Shown: positions 32,419 through 61,433 of the stretch, piece by piece | Layout of the letters: every line of letters starts with the position of its first letter | Position numbering within the stretch: position 1 is the stretch's first letter | NCBI GenBank assembly: GCA_033977065.1 | Contig: JAXCHI010000002.1 | Coordinates: 320,001-384,000 of the forward strand | From: Candidatus Algichlamydia australiensis | GTDB lineage: Bacteria > Chlamydiota > Chlamydiia > Chlamydiales > JAJFMI01 | DNA length: 64,000 bases | Direction of reading: 5' to 3' | Translations under genes and position numbers: made by a program | The notes under the pieces: model-generated | The model's database searches: none | What the model saw: the letters and a program-made list of their open reading frames with translations, nothing else | Told to the model about the DNA's origin: nothing

Positions 32419-33511
32419 GAAATTGAGTCAATTGAGGCGCGGTCGTATGAATGGTCGTAGTCTAGAAGTTAGCCATAAATTTAAAGAATTTCTTTGCAGC
32501 CCTGATCGCGCTTATCCAATTGTGCACATTGCTGGTAGCAATGGAAAAGGCTCAGTTGCCATTAAAATAGCGCGTGCTTTGGAGCATGCAGGCTACCGGG
32601 TAGGGCTCTTTACTTCTCCCCATACACATACTTATTTTGAACGAATTCGTATCAATGGAGAGATGATTTCAGAGAAAGAAGTAGAAGAGATTGGGCAAAA
32701 ACTCCTTGATTACGCCGAAGTAAATTATTTAGAACCAACTTTTTTTGAGACGACAACTTGGATTGCTATGGAGTATTTTCGCAAAAACCAAGTCGAAATC
32801 GCAATTATTGAAGCGGGTCTTGGGGGACGATTGGACAGCACCAATGCGATTGATAAACGGCTGCTCTCTGTTATCCCTTCAATTAGCCTTGAACATAAGG
32901 AAGTTTTGGGAAATAGCATTGAAGAAATTGCGAAAGAGAAAGCGGGAATCATTCGTAATAATGATGTAGTTTTAGGACCTAGCGCTAATTGCGAGGAAAT
33001 TCTTGAAGTGGCAAAAATTCATGGAGCCACTGTCCACATTGCAGAAGAGGGGCTGCACTATGAGATCGAAAATCAAAATGTAGCAAGAAAGAGCTTAGAA
33101 CTTATGCGGAAGCACTTTACTATTCCTTCTCAGGCAATTAACCAGGGATTACTTGCAAAAATGCCGGGGCGATTTGAGCTCCTTGAGCCCGATATCCTTT
33201 GCGATGCGGCGCATAATCCTGCGGGCTTGCGCGCACTACTACATCTTCTTGAAATGGCTTATCCAAGTAGAAACTTTCGTTTTGGAATTGCCCTTTCAAA
33301 TCACAAAGATCATGATGCTTTTTTACAATTACTTGAAGAATCAGAAATCCCTTACCACTGGCTCGAAGTAGAACATGAGCGATTGCAAAGGGCAGAAAAA
33401 CAGATCAGTTTTCAGAAACTAAAAGAGCTCGCCCGGAGGAAGGGCGAGCTCTTGGTTTTATGCGGTAGCATATATTTAAGAGGAGCGATCAAGCAAACTT
33501 CGCTTGTATAA
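32405..33511 (+). CDS. folC: Folylpolyglutamate/dihydrofolate synthase
   Basis: Motifs HIAGSNGKGS, TSPH, EAGLGGRLDSTN and DAAHNPAG. Confidence 0.93.
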   Translation: MNFIEKLSQLRRGRMNGRSLEVSHKFKEFLCSPDRAYPIVHIAGSNGKGSVAIKIARALEHAGYRVGLFTSPHTHTYFERIRINGEMISEKEVEEIGQKLLDYAEVNYLEPTFFETTTWIAMEYFRKNQVEIAIIEAGLGGRLDSTNAIDKRLLSVIPSISLEHKEVLGNSIEEIAKEKAGIIRNNDVVLGPSANCEEILEVAKIHGATVHIAEEGLHYEIENQNVARKSLELMRKHFTIPSQAINQGLLAKMPGRFELLEPDILCDAAHNPAGLRALLHLLEMAYPSRNFRFGIALSNHKDHDAFLQLLEESEIPYHWLEVEHERLQRAEKQISFQKLKELARRKGELLVLCGSIYLRGAIKQTSLV

Positions 33512-34223
33512 CATCGGTAGCTTGTGTCTGCTCCATATATTCTGGTAGCTCTCTTTCCATACGAGCTACCTCTTCTTTAGCTGAAGCACCTAAATCATCA
33601 CCATTTGCAATGAAATAGCCGGTACGGATTGCTGCTTCAGCAAGTTGGCGGCTAAGGACGTAGGCACGAGTCAAATCAAGAGTAATTGTAAACTCATTGA
33701 GGCAGGCTCCCATTTCATGAATCAAAAGATTAAATACCTCTTTTGTTGACTGTGGCAGGCCGTGATAGAGCGAAAAAAATTGCTGTTTATGACCAGAGAC
33801 CAAAAGAACTCCAGCCATGTCGTAGAGATAAAAAGCCATTTCTGCACGATCCTTTATCTCTAGTCCAGAGTAGAGGGTAGGACTCAGTATACTCTCTTTT
33901 TTAGTTTCTCTTCGAAGTCTTGCTTTAGCTACTTCTAATTTGCGGCGCAGTGAAGCTGCAGGAGCAAACTCCTCTTCAAATTGGGTTATATCAAGCAAAA
34001 TTTTTGCTTTTTCACCAGACTCAAGCTCTTTACTCGCACGCTTGATAAGCGCCTCTCCACGCTCATTTTCTGCTTTTATGAACGCTTGATGAAGCAAGCT
34101 GCCGTGGAGCTCATTCTGCTTATCTGTTTGGGGGTTGATTTGGGAAAGTTGTTCAAGGGAAAAGTATATAGAACTTTTTTGAATTCGCTCGAGTTCACGA
34201 GCTACTTTAAAGGCGTTAGCCAT
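33489..34223 (-). CDS. Hypothetical protein
   Basis: 244-codon ORF with a GAGG RBS; no recognisable motif. Confidence 0.6.
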   Translation of the reverse strand: MANAFKVARELERIQKSSIYFSLEQLSQINPQTDKQNELHGSLLHQAFIKAENERGEALIKRASKELESGEKAKILLDITQFEEEFAPAASLRRKLEVAKARLRRETKKESILSPTLYSGLEIKDRAEMAFYLYDMAGVLLVSGHKQQFFSLYHGLPQSTKEVFNLLIHEMGACLNEFTITLDLTRAYVLSRQLAEAAIRTGYFIANGDDLGASAKEEVARMERELPEYMEQTQATDVIQAKFA

Positions 34224-35024: not shown

Positions 35025-35098
35025 GGGGTATTAGCTCAGTTGGTTAGAGCGCCACGTTGACATCGTGGAGGTCAGCTGTTCGAGTCAGCTATATCCCA
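35025..35098 (+). tRNA. tRNA-Val(GAC)
   Basis: Acceptor stem GGGGTAT/ATATCCC-A, D-arm AGCTCAGTTGGTTAGAGC, anticodon arm CCACG-TTGACAT-CGTGG, T-arm AGCTG-TTCGAGT-CAGCT. Confidence 0.96.
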
Positions 35099-35101
35099 AT
35101 T

Positions 35102-36292
35102 TTGAAAAATTCTCTTTCCAACAATCAAACCCTTGCAGAGCTGCTTGCCAGCTCTGTAATGGACCTATTTCCAAAAGCGCAAATTCTCTATACAAGCGGA
35201 TCGCGTGAAGGTTTTTTTACCGATGTAATCTTTCCAGATCCTTTTGCAAAAGAGCAGATGGCGTTTATAGAGCAGCGCATGCGAGAAAAAATTGCAAAGG
35301 GCGTTGAAGTGCGCAAGCTCGACATGTTAGGGGAGAGCCTTACACACTTTCTCAAAGATCAGGGACAGATTGTTGCAGCAGCCCTCCTAAATGATCGTCT
35401 GGGTGAAGTTTTGCCAGTAATTCAAATTGATCGCTATGCGAACCTTTGTGAGCAGCCATTCACAGACGAACTGGATGCTTCATGGTCACCAAAGATAAAA
35501 ACATTTTTCCAATGTGAACCCTTTACGTTTCGCGATCATCAAGAGAGTGTAACAAGAATTAGTGGATTTGAAGGGCAAAAAAGCAAAAAAAAGAGCCATA
35601 TAGATTTGGGAAAACCTCTCTTTTCTTTTTTTCCAAAGAGGCCAGTTACACGAAATGGTTCTGTAGAAATCTTTTGGCATGGAGAAGGAAGCAGGCTCTT
35701 TTCTCAAATCATTTCTTTGTGGAAGCAAGCGAATATTGAGGAAGTGAAGCTCCCTCCTGGTTGTACTCTTAAAGAGTATGTTCAATTTACGGGAAAGAAG
35801 AGTGCAGGGACAATTAGAGAAGAAATTTTCCATAATCAAAATTTTATATATGGTCTTTTAGACCCTTTGCGATCCACTCAAGCCCAGACCATTCAGCTCC
35901 TTCCCAAAAAAAATATTGCGAAAACTCTCATTTCTCTCTTGCAATTCTCTGCAAAGACTTATAAAATGTTAGACTTAAAGTGGCATGCATACTTGACGGT
36001 GCCGACGCAGAGGCTAGATGGCCATGACGCGCTTGTAGAGATCCTAGAGAGCTCAGCGGTAGAAGCTGAAATTGCCCTCGAGAAGAAGTTTGTTCCTGGG
36101 AAGGGTTTGCCAAGGATCTCGCTTAGAGTAAAAGATGTTTTTCAAAAAGAGTGGACTGTATCAACTCTTCTTTTAGAAAAAGTTGAAGGAGATATTCTTC
36201 TTTCACATAAACTTTTTACTTCAATTGAGCGCTTGATCGCGTTGATGCTTGAAAATAGTCAAGGTTTGCCTAGAATTAGTGAGAATTCATGA
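35102..36292 (+). CDS. Degenerate threonyl-tRNA-synthetase-like protein
   Basis: Eroded ThrRS landmarks in the correct order: LAELLASSVMDLFPKAQ, EGFFTD, HIDLGKPLF, IFWHGEG, PRISLRVKDVFQKEWTVST and TSIERLIALMLE. No anticodon-binding domain. TTG start at 35102, just after tRNA-Val. Confidence 0.75.
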   Translation: MKNSLSNNQTLAELLASSVMDLFPKAQILYTSGSREGFFTDVIFPDPFAKEQMAFIEQRMREKIAKGVEVRKLDMLGESLTHFLKDQGQIVAAALLNDRLGEVLPVIQIDRYANLCEQPFTDELDASWSPKIKTFFQCEPFTFRDHQESVTRISGFEGQKSKKKSHIDLGKPLFSFFPKRPVTRNGSVEIFWHGEGSRLFSQIISLWKQANIEEVKLPPGCTLKEYVQFTGKKSAGTIREEIFHNQNFIYGLLDPLRSTQAQTIQLLPKKNIAKTLISLLQFSAKTYKMLDLKWHAYLTVPTQRLDGHDALVEILESSAVEAEIALEKKFVPGKGLPRISLRVKDVFQKEWTVSTLLLEKVEGDILLSHKLFTSIERLIALMLENSQGLPRISENS

Positions 36293-37418: not shown

Positions 37419-38438
37419 GTGTTAGACCGGATTCAAAAACTCAAAGAATCCTATAAAAGCGAACTGGATCAGGTAAAGAAAAGTCGAGACTTAGAAGATC
37501 TAAAAGTCAAATATCTCGGCCGTAAAGGCCCGATCCAGGCGCTGATGCAGTCCTTGCGTGACATGCCAGCTGATCAGCGCCCACAAATGGGCAAAGTGAT
37601 CAACGAGCTTAAGCAAACCATTACCCTTGATCTAGACGATCGTCTAAACACCCTCATCCAACAAGAGCGAAACGCGCAGATCTCTTCTGAATCCGTTGAT
37701 ATCTCCCTGCCTGGTCGCAAAAAATCTCCAGGTCGTATCCATCCACTTTCGCAGATGATGGATGAAATCCTCGCAGTTCTCATAGAAATGGGGTTTACTG
37801 TTCAAGAGACACCAGAAATTGAGTCAGAGTATTACAATTACGGTGGCCTCAATTATCCTCCTGATCATCCTGCGCGCGATATGCAAGATACCTTCTACCT
37901 CGCTCCCGAAATTCTTCTCCGCTCGCATAACACGAACGTGCAACAGCGCGTGATGGAGCATCACAACCCGCCCATAAGGATCTGTTCTCATGGAAAGTGT
38001 TATCGCAATGAGACGATCACATCTCGCTCTCACGTACTCTTCCATCAAGTGGATGTGCTCTATATCGATAAAAATGTCTCCTTTGCTGATCTGCTCGCAA
38101 CAAAAAAAGCCTTTTTTGAAAAACTCCTAGGACACGAAGTGGAACTTCGCGTACGTCCTAGCTATTTTCCCTTTGTTGAACCAGGCATGGAAGTGGACAT
38201 CCGTTGCACCTCTTGTCAAGGCAAAGGTTGCCGCCTCTGTAAAGAGACAGGCTGGCTAGAAGTTTCTGGAGCGGGTATGGTCCATCCTGAAGTTCTGAAA
38301 GAGGGAGGCGTTGATCCTGAACACTACTCAGGATTTGCTTGGGGTGGGGGAGTTGAGAGACTTTTCATGCTACGTCATGGAGTTACAGACATCCGCCTCT
38401 TTACAGATAACGACATGCGCTTCCTCTCCCAATTCTAA
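37419..38438 (+). CDS. pheS: Phenylalanine-tRNA ligase alpha subunit
   Basis: Motifs HPARDMQDTF, FHQV, RPSYFPFVEP, GMVHPEVL and GVERL. Confidence 0.97.
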   Translation: MLDRIQKLKESYKSELDQVKKSRDLEDLKVKYLGRKGPIQALMQSLRDMPADQRPQMGKVINELKQTITLDLDDRLNTLIQQERNAQISSESVDISLPGRKKSPGRIHPLSQMMDEILAVLIEMGFTVQETPEIESEYYNYGGLNYPPDHPARDMQDTFYLAPEILLRSHNTNVQQRVMEHHNPPIRICSHGKCYRNETITSRSHVLFHQVDVLYIDKNVSFADLLATKKAFFEKLLGHEVELRVRPSYFPFVEPGMEVDIRCTSCQGKGCRLCKETGWLEVSGAGMVHPEVLKEGGVDPEHYSGFAWGGGVERLFMLRHGVTDIRLFTDNDMRFLSQF

Positions 38439-38519
38439 AACTTCTTCCTTTGCCCCCATTTCAATAAATGATTAGGAACTTCCAAAATAGTTGCTCATTA
38501 GCTATACTCTTGCCTATGC

Positions 38520-38830
38520 GGCAGAGTGGCCAGGAAGGGTTAAAAAGCTGCTCTCTTTGATCGCAATTTTTAAATTGAGAATAGATTGGTTTTGGAGAAT
38601 GAAGTGAACTGTATCAAGTTCACGAGTTCGAAAAATCGATATAGGCCAATTTAAAAACTGTGGTCAAAAAGTCTGAGCTTTTTAGGACTTCCCGATGCGT
38701 CTGTCTTGAAAACAGAAGTGCCGCAAGGTACCGGGGGTTCGACGGCCAGCAATGCTGGACGGGGCTTTCGAGCGAAGTGAGGAAGAGCCCGAAGGGCCGG
38801 AGGGCGTAAGCCCGGAGCCAATCCCTCCTC
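38520..38830 (+). pseudogene. Interrupted duplicate of tRNA-Ser(TGA)
   Basis: D-arm fragment ggcagagtggcc (38520-38531), a 160-bp palindromic insert, then an exact copy of the anticodon and variable arms (to 38742), a 78-nt T-loop insert, and atccctcctc. A diverged copy of the tRNA promoter lies upstream. Confidence 0.85.
38533..38692. mobile_element. Palindromic RPE/MITE-like element (family 1, copy A)
   Basis: Imperfect TIRs ggaagggttaaaaagct / agctttttaggacttcc. It is a long imperfect hairpin homologous to 61284-61433. Confidence 0.75.
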
Positions 38831-38889
38831 GGTGTTATCGATAAAAAACTTTCAAAATAGCTGCTGATTAGCTATACTTTGATCTATCT

Positions 38890-38974
38890 GGAAGAGTGGC
38901 AGAGTGGCCGAATGCGTCTGTCTTGAAAACAGAAGTGCCGCAAGGTACCGGGGGTTCGAATCCCTCCTCTTCCG
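38890..38974 (+). tRNA. tRNA-Ser(TGA)
   Basis: Acceptor stem GGAAGAG/CTCTTCC-G, anticodon arm TCTGT-CTTGAAA-ACAGA, long variable arm, GGTTCGAATCC. TATACT -10 element at 38873. Confidence 0.97.
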
Positions 38975-39567
38975 AATTTATCGATACAATCTTCAATAAT
39001 AAAATTGTGATACATGCGAATTTGGGATGAGAACCCAAGGGGTTCGACGGCCAGCATTGCTGGACGGGGCTTTCGAACGAAGAGAGAAAGAGCCCGAAGG
39101 GCCGGAGGACGTAGTCCGTAGCCAATCCCTCCTCTTCCGAATTTATCGATACAATCTTCAATAATAAAATTGTGATACATGCGAATTTGGGATGAGAACC
39201 CAAGGGGTTCGACGGCCAGCATTGCTGGACGGGGCTTTCGAACGAAGAGAGAAAGAGCCCGAAGGGCCGGAGGACGTAGTCCGTAGCCAATCCCTCCTCT
39301 TCCGAATTTATCGATACAATCTTCAATAATAAAATTGTGATACATGCGAATTTGGGATGAGAACCCAAGGGGTTCGACGGCCAGCAATGCTGGACGGGGC
39401 TTTCGAACGAAGAGAGAAAGAGCCCGAAGGGCCGGAGGACGTAGTCCGTAGCCAATCCCTCCTCTTCCGAATTTATCGATACAATCTTCAATAAAACAAT
39501 TAGGATACAGGTAAGCTTGGGATGAGAACCCGTGGGTTCGACGGCCAGCATTGCTGGACGGGGCTTC
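38975..39567 (+). repeat. tRNA-linked tandem repeat, 165-bp unit, about 3.6 copies
   Basis: Units start at 38975, 39140, 39305 and 39470 (partial). Each full unit ends in the tRNA-Ser 3' end AATCCCTCCTCTTCCG. Confidence 0.95.
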
Positions 39568-39786
39568 CAAGCTTATGGGAGATCAAAAGACTGCTCACGA
39601 GATACTCATTGAGTTTTTTAGAATTTTCGGCTCGACCTATCGGTACAGCAGTTATTCAGTGCTTCCTTAAGGAAGTTATTTAAGAATTATTTATTTTTTG
39701 GTATCATTGTTGTCTAAAGGATGTTTTGTATCCTAAAAATCCATTTAATTATAGAATTATAACTATTTTTATAAAAAGGTTTTTTT

Positions 39787-40782
39787 ATGAATAAAGAGAT
39801 AAATATTGAGTTAATAGGTGTTGGAAAATACTTACCTTCAAGAAAGGTTGCAGCTTCTGGAATTGATAATACATTAAAAACGAAATTAGGCTGGTCTCTC
39901 AATGCAACAGGAGTAAAATATCGTTTCTTTTCAGATGGTGAAACTTCTTCTGAAATGGGTGCTAAAGCAATAAATGAAGCAATAAAAAACACTAATATTT
40001 CCAAATTTGATTTTGACGCACTCGTTAGCGTAGGTGGAACAACACAGCAGCCAATTCCTTGTACAGCATCATTAATTGCAGCTCAACTTGGCTTAAGAAA
40101 AGGATTGATTGCTTTTGATGTTAACGCTACTTGTTTAGGATTTCTTGTTGCACTTGATCTTTTAGCAAAACAAATTTCTCTTGGCTGTTATAACAGAGTG
40201 GCACTTGTTGCTTCTGAAATTGCTTCTGAAGGTCTAAACTGGCAGCAAAAAGAGAGTGCAGCTCTTTTTGGTGACGGCGCTGCAGCCGTTATTATTGGTC
40301 CAGGAAAAAAAGGAGGGAGCAAAATCATTGCAAGCCACTTTGAAACCTATTCTGAAGGTGTAGAGTTTTGCCAAATTCGCGGTGGTTCCGCAAAGCTACA
40401 TGCAAAGTATCACTCTAAAGAAAATAGCTCAGAATACTTGTTTGATATGCATGGCTCTAGCTTATTTAAGCTGGTCATGAAAAAATTGCCTAGTTTTCTT
40501 AAGGATCTTCTTGCGCAAGCAAATCTTGCTTTAAGTGATATTGATCTTGTAATTCCCCACCAAGCAAGTTTATCTGCTCTGACTTTGTTAAGAAAACGTC
40601 TTGGCCTTTCTGAAAAAAAATTCTTTATTAACGTTCACGAGCACGGAAATATTATTTCAGCTTCTATTCCATTAGCTTTGCATGATGCACTTAATCAAGA
40701 TCGAATTCAACGTGGTAATAAAGTTCTGCTTCTAGGTTCTTCAGCAGGAGTCTCTTTAGGAGGAGTGGTTCTTGAGTATTAG
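39787..40782 (+). CDS. 3-oxoacyl-ACP synthase III (FabH/OleA-like)
   Basis: Catalytic Cys (NATCLGF), His (PHQAS) and Asn (HGN); FGDGAAA. Confidence 0.9.
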   Translation: MNKEINIELIGVGKYLPSRKVAASGIDNTLKTKLGWSLNATGVKYRFFSDGETSSEMGAKAINEAIKNTNISKFDFDALVSVGGTTQQPIPCTASLIAAQLGLRKGLIAFDVNATCLGFLVALDLLAKQISLGCYNRVALVASEIASEGLNWQQKESAALFGDGAAAVIIGPGKKGGSKIIASHFETYSEGVEFCQIRGGSAKLHAKYHSKENSSEYLFDMHGSSLFKLVMKKLPSFLKDLLAQANLALSDIDLVIPHQASLSALTLLRKRLGLSEKKFFINVHEHGNIISASIPLALHDALNQDRIQRGNKVLLLGSSAGVSLGGVVLEY

Positions 40783-41923
40783 CAAAACCATTCTTATTAC
40801 TGGAGCTCGAGCTCCAGTTGCGTTAGACTTGGCCCGTTTGTTATCTGCAAGCGGTGCTCGGGTTATGGTTGCTGAGACGAGTAAAAAACATTTATGCCGT
40901 TTTTCAAATGCAGTAGAGAGGAGTTTTGTGGTTCCTGCTCCCATTTACAGTTCAAAACATTTTACAAATGCAATTATTGAACTTGTTAAATGCCATCAAA
41001 TTGATGTGATTGTACCAATGTGCGAAGAAGTATTCTTTTTAGCAGAAAGGCATAGTGACATTTCTTCAATTTGTACTCTTCTCTGCGATCCATTATCAAA
41101 ACTTGAGCCTCTTCATAACAAAGAGAAATTTATTAAATTATTAGAGAATATAGGCTTGCCTTTTCCTGAAACTGTTTTGTTAACATCTAAAAATGCTGTC
41201 AAATCTGCGGCTGAAAGATGGAAAAAAACAGTATTTAAACCAGTCTATTCTCGTTTTGCTCGGCAAGTAGTAATTTGTGAAGGAGAAAATACAGCTAAGG
41301 CAGAGTCTATCATCCCTACAAAAAGTCAACCATGGATCGCTCAAGAATTTATTGAAGGTAGGCGTCTTTGTTCTTATGGCTTTGCGCGTAATGGCAAGCT
41401 CTTAGCCCATGTCACCTATCCTGTAGAATATTGTGTAGGTGAAACGGGATCTGCTCTTGCTTTTAGAAGTATTGAACATTCACTATCATTTCAATTTGTC
41501 CAAAATTTAGTTAAGTTTCTTAATTTTACAGGTCAAATCAGTCTAGATTTTATCGAAAGGCATGATGGAACTCTTGTCGCAATTGAATGTAACCCACGAG
41601 CAACTAGTGGCCTGCATCTATTCAATTCATCTGACAAACTTCCTTCTGCCATGATTGAAGGTAAGCATGTCGCATATTTACCTGAAGGTCGAAAAGGACA
41701 ACTGTTAATTCCTCTGCTTTTATTGGGAGGGATAAAGTTAAAGCCTAAAAAATTATTAAATATATTTTTCTTTGGTAGAGATGTAATATTTTCCCTAAAA
41801 GATATTTTACCTGCTCTCTTCTCACCCTTGCTTCTGATCTATTACGCTTTGCAAGGATATAGAAAAAACATGACGATTACAGAGGTATCTACATATGATA
41901 TCGAATGGAATGGGGGTTTATGA
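40772..41923 (+). CDS. ATP-grasp domain protein
   Basis: Motifs ITGARAPVALDLAR, LHNKEKF, KPVYSRF, QEFIEG and IECNPRATSG. Confidence 0.85.
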   Translation: MSISKTILITGARAPVALDLARLLSASGARVMVAETSKKHLCRFSNAVERSFVVPAPIYSSKHFTNAIIELVKCHQIDVIVPMCEEVFFLAERHSDISSICTLLCDPLSKLEPLHNKEKFIKLLENIGLPFPETVLLTSKNAVKSAAERWKKTVFKPVYSRFARQVVICEGENTAKAESIIPTKSQPWIAQEFIEGRRLCSYGFARNGKLLAHVTYPVEYCVGETGSALAFRSIEHSLSFQFVQNLVKFLNFTGQISLDFIERHDGTLVAIECNPRATSGLHLFNSSDKLPSAMIEGKHVAYLPEGRKGQLLIPLLLLGGIKLKPKKLLNIFFFGRDVIFSLKDILPALFSPLLLIYYALQGYRKNMTITEVSTYDIEWNGGL

Positions 41924-42912
41924 GAGTAGCTGTCACAGGTGCAACGGGTTTTTTAGGACAACAAATTGTTGCGAAATTACTAAAGAAAAAGTGTGATGTT
42001 ATCGCTTTAGGTCGCAATAAAAAAATTGGCTCAAATCTTGGAGAAATGGGCGCAAGGTTTGTGAAAGCAGACTTAAATTCTTGGAAGGAGATGGCTTGTG
42101 CTTTTGATGGTTGTTCTGCTGTCATTCACTCTGCTGCACTCTCTTCCCCATGGGGTTCAAAAAGAGCTTTTTATGAAGCTAATGTTCTTGGAACTCGAAA
42201 TGTTTTAAGAGCAATAGAATTTTCTAATGTTCAACGAATCGTCCATATCTCAACTCCAAGCGTATATTTTGATTATACAGATCGTTTGCAGATTTCTGAA
42301 GATGAGCAATTACCGCGAAAGATGGTGAATCAATATGCTCGATCAAAGTTGGAAGCTGAAAAAATTGTTATGAAGGCTTTTGAGCAAGGGCTTGAGACAA
42401 TAATCATTAGGCCTCGCGCACTATTCGGCCCTGGCGATACAACTCTTTTTCCTCGACTAATTAAGGCAAATAATTTGATTGGTATTCCTATTACAAATCC
42501 TAAACCAATTTTGACAGACCTGACGTATGTCGAAAACGCAGCAGACGCTGCTTTGCTCTGTTTAAACGCTTCTCGAATTTGTTTGGGAAAAGCTTATAAC
42601 ATTACAGATGGGGAGCCCACTTCATTAGAAGAGCTCCTCAAAGGCCTATTTTCTTCGTTGAATGTTTTTTTTCGTAAGCGACGAGTCCCATACTCACTTG
42701 CATTTGGTTTGGCTCTTTTTTCGGAAGGAATTGGAACTTTGATTGGCAAAGAACCAAGTTTAACAAGATATGGAATAGGGGTTCTTAGTAGGAGCATGAC
42801 CCTCGATATATCACGAGCCAAAATGGAACTTGGGTACCATCCACAGGTTCGTACTCAAGAAGGGATTGCACGCTTCATATGCTGGTGGAAATCGGGTGGT
42901 GCTAATGGTTAA
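41920..42912 (+). CDS. NAD-dependent epimerase / 3-beta-HSD-like SDR (OleD-like)
   Basis: Motifs GATGFLG, HSAALSSPWG, YARSK and RPRALFGPGD. Confidence 0.9.
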   Translation: MRVAVTGATGFLGQQIVAKLLKKKCDVIALGRNKKIGSNLGEMGARFVKADLNSWKEMACAFDGCSAVIHSAALSSPWGSKRAFYEANVLGTRNVLRAIEFSNVQRIVHISTPSVYFDYTDRLQISEDEQLPRKMVNQYARSKLEAEKIVMKAFEQGLETIIIRPRALFGPGDTTLFPRLIKANNLIGIPITNPKPILTDLTYVENAADAALLCLNASRICLGKAYNITDGEPTSLEELLKGLFSSLNVFFRKRRVPYSLAFGLALFSEGIGTLIGKEPSLTRYGIGVLSRSMTLDISRAKMELGYHPQVRTQEGIARFICWWKSGGANG

Positions 42913-43726
42913 AGTTACTCTACTCAATACCGGATACTGCAGAGCTTGGGGGAAAATTGCAGTAAATTGTTGGAGCTGGCAGAGACGTTCTTTTCCTGCA
43001 ATAGTAGCTATGATAGAGCATCCAAAAGAAGGAATTATTTTATTTGATACTGGTTACAGTGAGTCATTTTTTTCTGCGACAAAGAAATTTCCTTACCGTT
43101 TTTATCGTTGGATTACACCCATATACCATAAGAATCAAGAATCGGTGAAGCATCAGCTTGAAGCTCGCGGATTTGGAGCTGACGATGTGCGCGCAATTTT
43201 TATTTCTCATTTTCATGCAGATCATCTATGTGGACTGTGTGATTTTGATAAGGCTAAGTTCTTTTGCTCAGGCACATCTGCAAGAGAAATTAAAAACCTT
43301 AGAGGAGTTTTTGCTTTGCGAAAAGGGTTCTTACCAGACCTTCTTCCTAATGACTTTTTTACTAGGACACAATATCTAGAAAATCTTCAGCTAAAAAATG
43401 TTGGGATACCCAACTCCCCATTTGAAATGGGAATTGATTTATTTCATGATCGCTCTATTGTAGCTATTTTTTTACCAGGTCACGCTCAAGGGCAGATGGG
43501 CTTACTTATTGATCAAAAAACATTTCTAATCGCAGATGCCGTGTGGAATTGTGAAGCTGTCAGAAAGAATATTCCTCCTCATAATCTGGCTCACCTTCTC
43601 CATGAGAATAAAAAAGCTTATCTTGAGACATTTAATAAACTGCATCAGCTTTCACGTTCTCATCCGGAAATACGACTTGTTCCAACGCATTGCCCGTCGG
43701 TTTTAGAAAGTAAAGGGGGAGTATGA
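42905..43726 (+). CDS. Metallo-beta-lactamase-fold hydrolase
   Basis: Motifs LFDTGY, SHFHADH, PGHAQGQ, ADA and PTHC. Confidence 0.9.
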   Translation: MVKVTLLNTGYCRAWGKIAVNCWSWQRRSFPAIVAMIEHPKEGIILFDTGYSESFFSATKKFPYRFYRWITPIYHKNQESVKHQLEARGFGADDVRAIFISHFHADHLCGLCDFDKAKFFCSGTSAREIKNLRGVFALRKGFLPDLLPNDFFTRTQYLENLQLKNVGIPNSPFEMGIDLFHDRSIVAIFLPGHAQGQMGLLIDQKTFLIADAVWNCEAVRKNIPPHNLAHLLHENKKAYLETFNKLHQLSRSHPEIRLVPTHCPSVLESKGGV

Positions 43727-45051
43727 AAACCCCAATTCTTCCATTTATTTACAGTTATTTTAATGCCTGTCGCTCTGTAAGAAGATTTCCTTCAAAAAAG
43801 GTTTTAAAATCCTGGCAGGAAAAGCAAGTGCAACGCCACTTACACTGGTTAAGAGGGCATTCTCCCTACTATGCGCAGCGGTTGAAAAGGGTAAACATTT
43901 CTGATTGGCGACAACTGGAGACAGTAAGCAAGTCTGAGATGATGGAGAATTTTGATCGGATAAACACAGCTTCATTAAAAAAAGAGAAATTATTAAATTT
44001 CGCCCTTGCCAACGAAGAGAGTAGAGACTTTGGAAAAGAGGTGGGCAGATTTACTGTTGGGCTCTCATCAGGTACATCTGGTAACAAGGGATTATTCGTT
44101 GTATCTGAAAAAGAGAGGTCTTGTTGGGCAGGATATATCTTGGCACGCATGTTACCAAGGCCTCTATGGCATAAGCAAAGAATTGCTCTTTTTTTACGCT
44201 CAGGAGGCCCCCTTTATCAAAGTACAGGTGGAGTGAGAATACAATTCCAATATTTTGATATATTTAAATCCCTTGATGAGCACTTAGACGCTTTGCAAGA
44301 GTATCAGCCTACTCTTATCGTGGGGCCACCATCTGTACTGAAATTTCTCGCTGAAAAAATTTCAGCTGATAAGCTTTTAATTAAGCCAGAGAAAATCGTT
44401 TCAGTAGCTGAAGTATTGGATCCAATTGATCAAATCCGTATTGAGAATGCCTTTGGTTTCCCGATTCATCAGGTCTATCAAGCTACTGAAGGGTGCATTG
44501 CCTCAACTTGTTCTCATGGTACCCTGCACTTACATGAGGATCTAATGTGCATTGAAAAAGAAGTAGTTGACCTATCGTTTAATCGCTTCGTACCGATTAT
44601 CACAGATTTTTCCCGCACTACTCAACCAATTGTGCGATATAGACTAGATGACATTTTAGTTGAGAAAAAGACCCCATGCCCCTGTGGATCTATATTTACC
44701 CAACTTGAAAGCATTGAGGGACGTTGTGATGATACGCTGGTATTTGAATCTAAAGATAAAAATACTTGTGTAGCGATTTACCCCGATTTTTTTAGACGAT
44801 GTGTTGCTTTTTCCTCTAACCAAATATTTGAGTATCGAATTGTCCAAACAAATTTTGACCAGCTACTAATCGAGTTTTCTTCCCTTTCTAAGGAACGAGA
44901 GAGAATAAAGAAAAAGATCTATAAAGAGTTAGTACAGCTTTTTACTCAAAAAAATGTTGCCATACCAGATATAAGCTATTCTTTATGGAAACCGCATCCA
45001 GTTCATCAAAAAATGAGGCGTGTGTTTCGGAAATTTGATATTTATGAGTGA
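43723..45051 (+). CDS. Adenylate-forming enzyme (F390-synthetase/PaaK-like)
   Basis: Motifs VGLSSGTSGNKGLF, VAEVL, YQATEG, RYRLDD and IEGRCDD. Confidence 0.88.
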   Translation: MKTPILPFIYSYFNACRSVRRFPSKKVLKSWQEKQVQRHLHWLRGHSPYYAQRLKRVNISDWRQLETVSKSEMMENFDRINTASLKKEKLLNFALANEESRDFGKEVGRFTVGLSSGTSGNKGLFVVSEKERSCWAGYILARMLPRPLWHKQRIALFLRSGGPLYQSTGGVRIQFQYFDIFKSLDEHLDALQEYQPTLIVGPPSVLKFLAEKISADKLLIKPEKIVSVAEVLDPIDQIRIENAFGFPIHQVYQATEGCIASTCSHGTLHLHEDLMCIEKEVVDLSFNRFVPIITDFSRTTQPIVRYRLDDILVEKKTPCPCGSIFTQLESIEGRCDDTLVFESKDKNTCVAIYPDFFRRCVAFSSNQIFEYRIVQTNFDQLLIEFSSLSKERERIKKKIYKELVQLFTQKNVAIPDISYSLWKPHPVHQKMRRVFRKFDIYE

Positions 45052-61283: not shown

Positions 61284-61433
61284 GTCGCTGAACAGCTGCT
61301 CTTTTCGATAAAATATCAAAAATTGAGAAAAAATTTTTTTTGGAGAACGGAGCTAGCTTAGCAAAAGCTAGCGAGTTCGAAAAAGAAATTTGAGCCAATT
61401 TTTGGTGTTTTAGTGGAAAGTCTGATCAGTGAC
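61284..61433. mobile_element. Palindromic RPE/MITE-like element (family 1, copy B)
   Basis: Shares six conserved motifs with 38533-38692 and has covarying stems. Confidence 0.7.

Follow-up and report, generated by a model that had tools for sequence, protein, structure and literature searches.

A tRNA-Ser gene in the genome of Candidatus Algichlamydia australiensis is followed by a 165-bp tandem array whose full units each close with a copy of the 3' end of that tRNA. What kind of element is this, and by what process could it be made and kept behind a tRNA gene? The locus lies on contig JAXCHI010000002.1 (assembly GCA_033977065.1, positions 320,001 to 384,000 of the forward strand), and by the window we mean this whole stretch of 64,000 nucleotides, to which coordinates refer unless another locus is named. 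Judged from its sequence, the array is a diverged tRNA-linked repeat (TLR) of the RtT-RNA type behind tRNA-Ser(UGA), and no new kind of element. As to its role, we give a probability of about 55% to a 3' trailer RNA module that would be co-transcribed with the tRNA, released by end-processing and amplified by unequal recombination.

Repeats of this family were first described in 1978. E. coli carries 22 of them at ten loci, with one to five at each, and each shares 18-19 bp, base for base, with the 3' end of its upstream tRNA or rRNA (PMC8144298, partial text).

Membership in the tRNA-linked repeats

The array stands directly 3' of a tRNA gene and on its strand. It holds 3.7 units and a second locus in the same genome holds 4.5, both within one to five units per locus and both counts being assembly-based. 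Its helices are conserved with compensatory changes, at the level of the family and between the two loci of this genome. Each of units 1-3 is closed by ATCCCTCCTCTTCCG, which equals the final 15 bases of tRNA-Ser (15/15); this copy is shorter than the 18-19 bp of E. coli solely because CCA is not encoded, either in the tRNA-Ser gene or in the units. Across the 1.8-Mb genome there are 8 instances of the core motif, all at the two tRNA-Ser loci, and 0 of its reversed control, so the array is not a product of chance.

One result speaks against this assignment. The window units gave no match to the curated Rfam model of the family, RF00391 (RtT; model length 130, gathering threshold 45 bits), even at E-values up to 10. 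In an Rfam scan of 38000-40200 the tRNA alone exceeded its threshold, with no self-cleaving ribozyme or other curated RNA. Other members of the order do reach the model: a unit of the Chlamydiales genome G184 scored 46.8 bits, over the threshold, at model positions 1-130, and other chlamydial units matched at full length with 38.1, 32.2, 31.4, 30.2, 27.3, 26.9, 26.8 and 25.7 bits. In the RF00391 consensus itself the core motif and the CCC-GAA-GGG hairpin recur, and its last bases are those of the tRNA-Tyr 3' end. Downstream of tyrV in E. coli K-12, the sequence read directly shows three tandem units with the same order of parts, the first of which is the annotated small RNA rttR.

Because the window units fail RF00391, we built a covariance model, R1, from 13 units of other Chlamydiales genomes and one E. 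coli tyrV unit, with the present genome excluded; these 14 were picked from the 48 units on hand for their common three-hairpin layout. R1 matched the three full units of the window with 66.6-67.7 bits (E about 1e-15) and four units of the second locus with 65.5-66.8 bits, in every case over positions 1-124 of 124, scores that are partly owed to the invariant core and to similar tRNA-Ser ends. That core, GGATGAGAA..hairpin..GGTTCGA with facing G-A pairs, is invariant in 31 of 31 aligned units, E. coli included. Applied to 20 loci from other phyla, RF00391 placed 2 above threshold and 1 more at E up to 0.01 and left 17 without a match, so the curated model detects a minority of the wider family. 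The original prediction, made from the letters alone, had pointed to similar repeats behind enterobacterial tRNA genes; the RF00391 matches, the tyrV units and R1 show that this was the right lead.

The second locus consists of tRNA-Ser(GCU) and a 170-bp array of 4.5 copies, whose units end with the 3' end of their own tRNA (ATCCCTCTCTTTCCG) and are 75-84% identical to the window units. Two hairpins change in a compensatory way from the window to this locus, GCCC-GAA-GGGC becoming GTCC-GCA-GGAC and GGAC-GTA-GTCC becoming GGGCT-GTAC-AGCCC.

A hammerhead or k-turn reading of AUGAGAAC/GUUCGA was rejected, given that the hammerhead core bases are not matched and that no Rfam ribozyme matches. Minus-strand open reading frames (ORFs) of 227-228 aa extend over the array; we do not regard them as protein-coding, as they have no Pfam match and the sister period of 170 bp is not a multiple of three.

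Anatomy of the array

ARAGORN, Tandem Repeats Finder and BLAST agree on a tRNA-Ser followed by three near-identical units of 165 bp and a diverged partial fourth, as the original prediction had described the locus, and its division of the unit into a spacer, sequence blocks and a 77-nt insert matches the sequence as read (Table 1). The Rfam tRNA model scores 60.4 bits at 38890-38974. Tandem Repeats Finder reports a single array of 3.7 copies with a period of 165 bp, 96% matches and zero indels. A repeat search in a 248-nt register finds units 1 and 2 to be 100% identical and unit 3 to be 95% identical, and BLAST with one unit returns full units at 100, 100 and 99%. Unit 3 differs from units 1 and 2 by one base, in the loop of the first hairpin (Ha). 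The fourth unit retains the 5' strand of the closing helix (P1), the hairpin P2 and Ha; the remainder and the copy of the tRNA 3' end are absent.

Table 1. Features of the tRNA-Ser(UGA) locus, with window coordinates and the basis of each assignment
Feature	Position	Strand	Basis
Second copy of tRNA-Ser promoter region and short 5' tRNA-Ser fragment (D-arm part)	38470-38530	+	79% identical to 38840-38900
Miniature inverted-repeat transposable element (MITE)-like dispersed repeat inside D-loop of dead tRNA-Ser copy	38531-38694	+	Inverted repeat pair; genome copies
Piece of tRNA-Ser body, from anticodon arm through variable arm and T-stem 5' strand to TTCGA	38695-38742	+	48 nt, 100% identical to 38912-38959
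Repeat module fused to tRNA body, then diverged 3'-end copy ATCCCTCCTCGGTG	38743-38835	+	93-95% identical to unit inserts
Promoter-like site, TTCAAA, 16 nt, TATACT	38851-38878	+	Consensus scan
tRNA-Ser, anticodon UGA (tga), CCA absent from gene	38889-38975	+	ARAGORN
Whole tandem array, counted from tRNA T-loop	38959-39566	+	Tandem Repeats Finder; repeat search; BLAST
AT-rich spacer, unit 1	38976-39023	+	Sequence; recurs at 39141-39188 and 39306-39353
Structured part, unit 1	39024-39139	+	R1 66.6 bits for 39015-39139; single-unit fold; family covariation
Structured part, unit 2, same sequence as unit 1	39189-39304	+	R1 66.6 bits for 39180-39304
Structured part, unit 3, Ha loop AAT	39354-39469	+	R1 67.7 bits for 39345-39469
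Fourth unit, truncated and diverged	39519-39566	+	89% over 113 nt (BLAST); R1 14 bits, E 0.051

The core of the first unit begins 48 nt beyond the tRNA-Ser gene. By sequence, unit 1 consists of GGGATGAGAACCC (39024-39036), GGGGTTCGA (39039-39047), the GC-rich insert of 77 nt (39048-39124) and ATCCCTCCTCTTCCG (39125-39139); GGGGTTCGA corresponds to the 5' strand of the tRNA T-stem and the first five bases of its T-loop. By fold, the same stretch is divided into the P1 5' strand GGGAT (39024-39028), GA (39029-39030), the P2 hairpin GAACCC-AAG-GGGTTC (39031-39045), a second GA (39046-39047), the module hairpins Ha (39051-39063), Hb (39070-39090), Hc (39092-39102) and Hd (39107-39117), the P1 3' strand ATCCC (39125-39129) and a tail that reaches G73 (39130-39139).

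These two divisions bear on how the unit is best described. It had first been described as a tRNA 3' end split within the T-loop, which is accurate at the level of sequence and throughout the family; the "T-arm" of that description is one of two readings, because the conserved fold pairs GGGTTC with the upstream GAACCC and GGGAT with ATCCC. Of the insert hairpins first proposed, CCAGC-ATT-GCTGG and GGAC-GTA-GTCC stand, and the middle one partly overlaps GCCC-GAA-GGGC, which is the hairpin that covariation supports. The alternation of ATT and AAT loops is real (AAT in an upstream hybrid, then ATT, ATT, AAT and ATT along the locus), but one base accounts for it, the central position of a palindromic hairpin.

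Conserved fold

In the fold shared by the family, the 5' arm GGGAT can pair with ATCCC of the tRNA-end copy (P1) and GAACCC with GGGTTC (P2). At the junction between them a G-A on each strand faces the other, and the module, 77 nt in the window units and running from Ha to Hd, branches there. A tandem G-A motif has also been reported for RtT RNA from covariation (bioRxiv 10.1101/2020.02.04.933952, partial text). RNAalifold on 31 units recovers P1, P2 and the CCC/GGG hairpin, together with one extra covarying pair in P1 (AU 11, UA 9, GC 3, CG 1, GU 1).

Covariation was counted on a 14-sequence MAFFT alignment with a hand-written structure. Under it 80.5% of cells are paired, against 72.8% in shuffles (a value reached by 0 of 500) and 34-52% when the partner is slid, and 18 pairs are changed on both sides, which 1 of 500 shuffles reached; these shuffle counts are not probabilities, because the sequences are related and the structure was derived from them. 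The P1 core and P2 are each paired in 98.8% of cells and Hc in 100%. Hb is paired in 78.9%, with double changes in 5 of 7 pairs, and Hd in 88.9%, with double changes in 4 of 4. Covariation supports this fold, in which a closing helix is followed by a hairpin that has a tandem G-A junction and by another three or four hairpins.

The extension of P1 across the acceptor strand is paired in 42% of cells. A long closing helix over the whole acceptor strand holds in G147, G149, L114 and L116 and was rejected as a general feature, the contiguous helix measuring 5-12 bp. Folded singly, most units show P1 closing a junction with P2 and three or four hairpins; the folding z-score lies below -2 in 24 of 31 units, with a median of -2.7. 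Across the family the P2 loop ranges in length from 1 to 7 nt. The sequence of the 5' arm follows that of the local tRNA: on average 9.05 of 14 positions are paired, compared with 8.38 when the 3' arms are permuted (standard deviation 0.14, maximum 8.97, 1000 permutations).

Distribution across genomes

A scan of 401 genomes of the order for the core pattern, with at most 1 mismatch, found the motif in 14 (8 of the 304 good-quality genomes; 10 of 216 genera), with 0 for the reversed control. Sixteen of the 18 chlamydial places inspected lie just 3' of a tRNA-Ser (UGA 8, GGA 5, GCU 2, CGA 1), and the remaining 2 are fragments with no tRNA within the available stretch. Chlamydial units measure 113-177 bp and occur in one to about 4.5 copies per locus, each ending in the 3' end of its own tRNA.

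An exact-pattern scan of one genome per species located at least 120 places across phyla, among them Bacteroidota, Beta- and Gammaproteobacteria, Verrucomicrobiota, Lentisphaerota, Patescibacteria, Firmicutes, Actinobacteria and two metagenome-assembled genomes labelled as archaeal. Eighty of these loci were fetched, and in 63 of the 80 a tRNA lies upstream on the same strand at a distance of up to 400 nt: Ser 31, Glu 11, Lys 5, Gly 4, Gln 3, Val 2, Arg 2, and 1 each of His, Leu, Met, Thr and one whose type is undetermined. This spectrum is biased, because the search pattern required a GGG/CCC T-stem. In 54 of the 80 the unit end equals the 14-mer of the local tRNA with at most 2 mismatches. 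The idea of a Ser-specific element, which the 16 chlamydial tRNA loci taken together would suggest, was dropped in view of the Glu, Lys, Gly, Gln, Val, Arg, His, Leu, Met and Thr loci found across phyla.

A last unit that is truncated but retains its 5' part closes many arrays, among them those of about 10 of 16 Chlamydiales loci and of 14 of 56 loci that could be assessed elsewhere; a further 7 fall at locus edges. Such last units are not a product of simple unequal crossing-over. Examples in which the 5' arm and P2 are kept and the module end and tRNA copy are lost lie at 39519-39566 of the window and at L006 (2250-2275), L043, L042, L051, L050 and L037.

Surroundings of the array

Upstream of the tRNA lies a dead hybrid (38470-38835) in which a tRNA-Ser body passes directly into a repeat module, the junction falling exactly at GGGGTTCGA; R1 scores it at 19.3 bits (E 0.0022). 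From its sequence, this hybrid would be the expected product of a crossover between the tRNA and a unit at the GGGGTTCGA that they have in common. Comparable upstream relics or second tRNA-Ser copies were seen in two other genomes (G088, L035; G065, L036). The D-loop of the dead copy is interrupted by a 164-bp insertion bounded by 17-nt inverted repeats, of which 16 further partial copies with 67-83% identity occur genome-wide. Within the window this MITE-like repeat is present at 61291-61401 as well.

The upstream neighbours are a putative rRNA methylase, infC, rpmI, rplT and pheS. The downstream neighbours (39787-45051) encode a FabH-like KAS III, an ATP-grasp protein, an NAD-dependent epimerase, a protein with a metallo-beta-lactamase fold and an AMP-binding protein, and look like a small biosynthetic cluster. 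A type III toxin-antitoxin RNA array was rejected on these neighbours, which are housekeeping or biosynthetic genes. Two ORFs, at 35057-36292 (411 aa) and 33489-34223 (244 aa), match no Pfam family; the former, as listed, begins inside tRNA-Val (35025-35098), and its true start is probably later.

Proposed explanation and alternatives

We suspect that transcripts from the tRNA-Ser promoter continue into the array as a long 3' trailer, because no terminator-like site stands in between: on the + strand, a scan from the promoter-like site through 39900 found none. The enzymes of tRNA 3'-end maturation would then cut and trim at each unit end and free unit-length folded small RNAs, since the T-stem and acceptor 3' strand of the tRNA, held in a helix, close each unit. 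The multi-hairpin module may act as a stable platform for protein binding. Copy number would shift through unequal recombination or replication slippage between the direct repeats, which would also keep the copies alike and like the tRNA, and no enzyme of the element's own would take part. For E. coli, the 5S-linked members are reported to be transcribed and processed, and the authors suggest that the repeated 3' end directs RNase E cleavage (PMC8144298, partial text). An RNA reading is also favoured by the strand bias of the loop motif CGNAG: over the 4678 nt surveyed, the tRNA-sense strand has 126 copies and the antisense strand 26. Among the three roles offered by the original prediction, a cassette processed into small RNAs comes nearest to these E. 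coli reports, that is, to the rttR annotation and to the processing of 5S-linked members.

Several observations weigh against a processed trailer RNA. In the RNA runs found, coverage is restricted to the tRNA part and the repeats are uncovered. In G014, G039, G147 and G149 a terminator hairpin separates the unit from the tRNA, and a duplicate of it follows the unit; transcription of the unit there therefore needs read-through, and the duplication is an event at the level of DNA. The direct repeat often passes the mature 3' end, by 48 nt in G014 and by about 5 nt past 5S in rrnB. The window unit folds weakly for its composition (z -0.63 and -0.24, with -1.23 for the second locus), and its closing helix of 5 bp is the minimum of the 5-12 bp seen in 61 distinct units, so the window units may be decaying copies.

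The kind of fold points the same way. A loop survey was made with RNAfold on 35 units, one per locus, out of 48 after 7 spurious pattern matches had been dropped. Among its 149 hairpins, 68 have triloops; C(GNA)G triloops number 37, against a shuffle mean of 0.76 (maximum 3 in 50 shuffles), and GNRA loops 6. The C(GNA)G loop type is best known from single-stranded DNA (PMC13037366, partial text). Stems are nearly all Watson-Crick, with 3.8% G-U. Sense and antisense strands fold equally well, the sense strand having the greater stability in 15 of 35 units; folding energy shows no strand preference and therefore gives no means of telling RNA from DNA. Both PMC8144298 and bioRxiv 10.1101/2024.07.17.603846 (partial texts) state that TLRs have no known function, and according to the former none has been accepted since 1978.

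Two side observations belong to these points. The order of tRNA, terminator, unit and same terminator was seen in L034, L043, L054, L059 and L037, and it matches the dual terminators of E. coli rrnB (L182). An RNA-library contig from another habitat (run X6, record 18), aligned to window positions 38890-38979, has the same tRNA-Ser sequence and then continues into the beginning of a repeat unit (GGGATGAGAACC). It may represent another organism's tRNA-linked repeat in RNA, or DNA carry-over, and is too weak to use.

The foremost competitor, a possible but unlikely one in our judgement, is selfish DNA without an RNA function: a hairpin module that inserts or recombines at the 3' ends of stable RNA genes, duplicates their last 15-50 bases and multiplies in tandem. 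Its transfer might proceed as single-stranded DNA, the hairpins being kept because an insertion or replication step needs them. Such an element would suit the patchy distribution (14 of 401 genomes, 10 of 216 genera), the same unusual module subtype at both loci of this genome, each with its own tRNA's 3' end, and the G014 direct repeats that take in the terminator. It would also suit the hybrid, whose part at 38695-38835 shows recombination between tRNA and repeat at the common GGGGTTCGA, as well as the many arrays that end in a truncated unit with the 5' part only, the Watson-Crick stems and the loops of DNA mini-hairpin type.

Set against it, no transposase, reverse transcriptase or extra integrase was found in the genome or beside the array. 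In this genome, which is 93.4% complete, neither the Y1 (HUH) transposase PF01797 nor the reverse transcriptase RVT_1 PF00078 has a match; these two negative searches speak, respectively, against an IS200/IS605-derived hairpin mini-element and a retroelement-derived repeat. The genome encodes two tyrosine recombinases of the Phage_integrase family (294 and 312 aa), far from both arrays and neither within 5 kb, which we would guess to be XerC and XerD. The E. coli homologues yield detectable RNAs. Insertion alone, moreover, is insufficient because the 5' arm tracks the local tRNA (9.05 against 8.38 permuted). The non-autonomous element amplifying in tandem that the original prediction had put forward survives as an improbable reading, its transposase, reverse transcriptase or dedicated integrase not having been found in the searches just described.

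We consider it doubtful, and less probable still, that TLR modules act as single-stranded DNA and not as RNA, as a pan-bacterial single-strand signal behind heavily transcribed stable-RNA genes. This reading is suggested by the C(GNA)G mini-hairpins on the tRNA-sense strand, three or four per module, by the Watson-Crick stems, and by a 5' arm complementary to the end of the stable RNA. Where genes are oriented with replication, the tRNA-sense strand is the lagging-strand template, and the signal may be, for instance, a G4/ssiA-like priming or restart site, or an annealing site for the tRNA or 5S RNA 3' terminus. We know of no link between TLRs and replication.

Very improbable is the proposal that the tRNA 3'-end copies are leftover or decoy attachment (att) sites of integrative elements that target tRNA-Ser. 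The att repeats of tRNA-integrating elements span the T-loop to the tRNA 3' end, and the direct-repeat block of the array runs between the same points. In the array, however, the T-arm is interrupted in every unit and no intact core site is left; the 1- to 7-nt loop of P2 fits a hairpin and not the fixed-spacer site of a recombinase; 5S-linked members exist; no integrase was found nearby, the genome having just the two tyrosine recombinases; and the module is conserved across phyla. Unlike att repeats, the array has no cargo and combines its interrupted T-arm with a conserved internal fold and a variable hairpin loop. The decoy attB sites of the original prediction thus find no support.

Least credible of all is an assembly artefact, in which a single unit was collapsed or expanded: the contigs of two DNA runs that contain this stretch break within the repeats and none spans the array, so the unit count rests on the assembly, but a second array of the same design exists in the genome, at least 10 other genomes also carry units in tandem, E. 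coli has three in a row, and substitutions set units 3 and 4 apart from 1 and 2.

Comparison with known systems

The locus alone adds little, and the comparison across phyla is more useful. The breadth of the element argues for a conserved partner or mechanism, as opposed to an enterobacterial oddity, because an invariant core and covarying hairpins sit behind tRNAs in reduced chlamydial genomes and in many phyla. The comparison also supplies material for a multi-phylum model and for phylogenetic profiling aimed at the partner.

Among curated RNAs, the proteobacterial small RNA sX4 (Rfam RF02223) gives full-length matches over tRNA-Ser and the first repeat bases, 37.4 bits in the window, yet all lie under the 70-bit threshold and the model scores mostly tRNA. 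Such sub-threshold matches to this Xanthomonas small RNA were seen at 38876-39034 of the window and in L034, L037, L059, L120, L076 and others. We rejected the sX4 and miRNA matches in the window as sub-threshold noise or as scoring the tRNA; the sX4 family itself may consist of a tRNA-Ser and the beginning of a tRNA-linked repeat.

A likeness of loop type only connects TLRs with the GCGNAGC mini-hairpin origins of phage G4 and RSF1010 ssiA, which also have several C-G-closed GNA triloop hairpins on one strand. Mini-hairpins of this type are extraordinarily stable in DNA and are found at the origins of the phages G4, St-1 and alpha3 and at RSF1010 ssiA (PMC13037366, partial text).

The 5S-linked TLRs of E. 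coli (RrA, RrB and RrF; PMC8144298, partial text) are closer. Their unit closes with 18 bp that repeat the upstream stable RNA's 3' end, the hairpin module is of the same type, and, like the units of G014, G039, G147 and G149, they are placed between two terminators; their RNAs are reported to bind Hfq and CsrA (same source). They differ in that the ATGAGAAC...GGTTCGA hairpin is absent and R1 gives no match. The element linked to rrfB consists of GAGTAGGA, the module and the last 18 bases of 5S, and the 5S gene of GAGTAGGGA and those 18 bases. In sequence, then, the tRNA-linked and the 5S-linked kinds both resemble a 3'-terminal piece of a gene that is split about 18 bases from its end by a module, with a complementary arm in front, and in the fold the piece before the split pairs backwards with that arm. 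Since both kinds look alike in this respect, "split 3' end with insert" is a fair wording.

The closest known counterparts of the window array are the 178-bp repeats of E. coli tyrT-tyrV (RtT RNA / rttR, RF00391). The window array differs from them in its chlamydial host, in a tRNA that is Ser and not Tyr, in the 165-bp unit and the CCA that is not encoded, in the 5-bp closing helix, in a lineage-specific first hairpin and Hb region, in the truncated last unit, and in escaping the Rfam model. What the two have in common is the tandem arrangement on the same strand, directly 3' of a tRNA gene; a unit end that equals the last 15-19 bases of the tRNA from the T-loop on; the core GGATGAGAA..hairpin..GGTTCGA, with a 5' arm that pairs with the 3'-end copy; and a series of C(GNA)G-looped hairpins that includes CCC-GAA-GGG.

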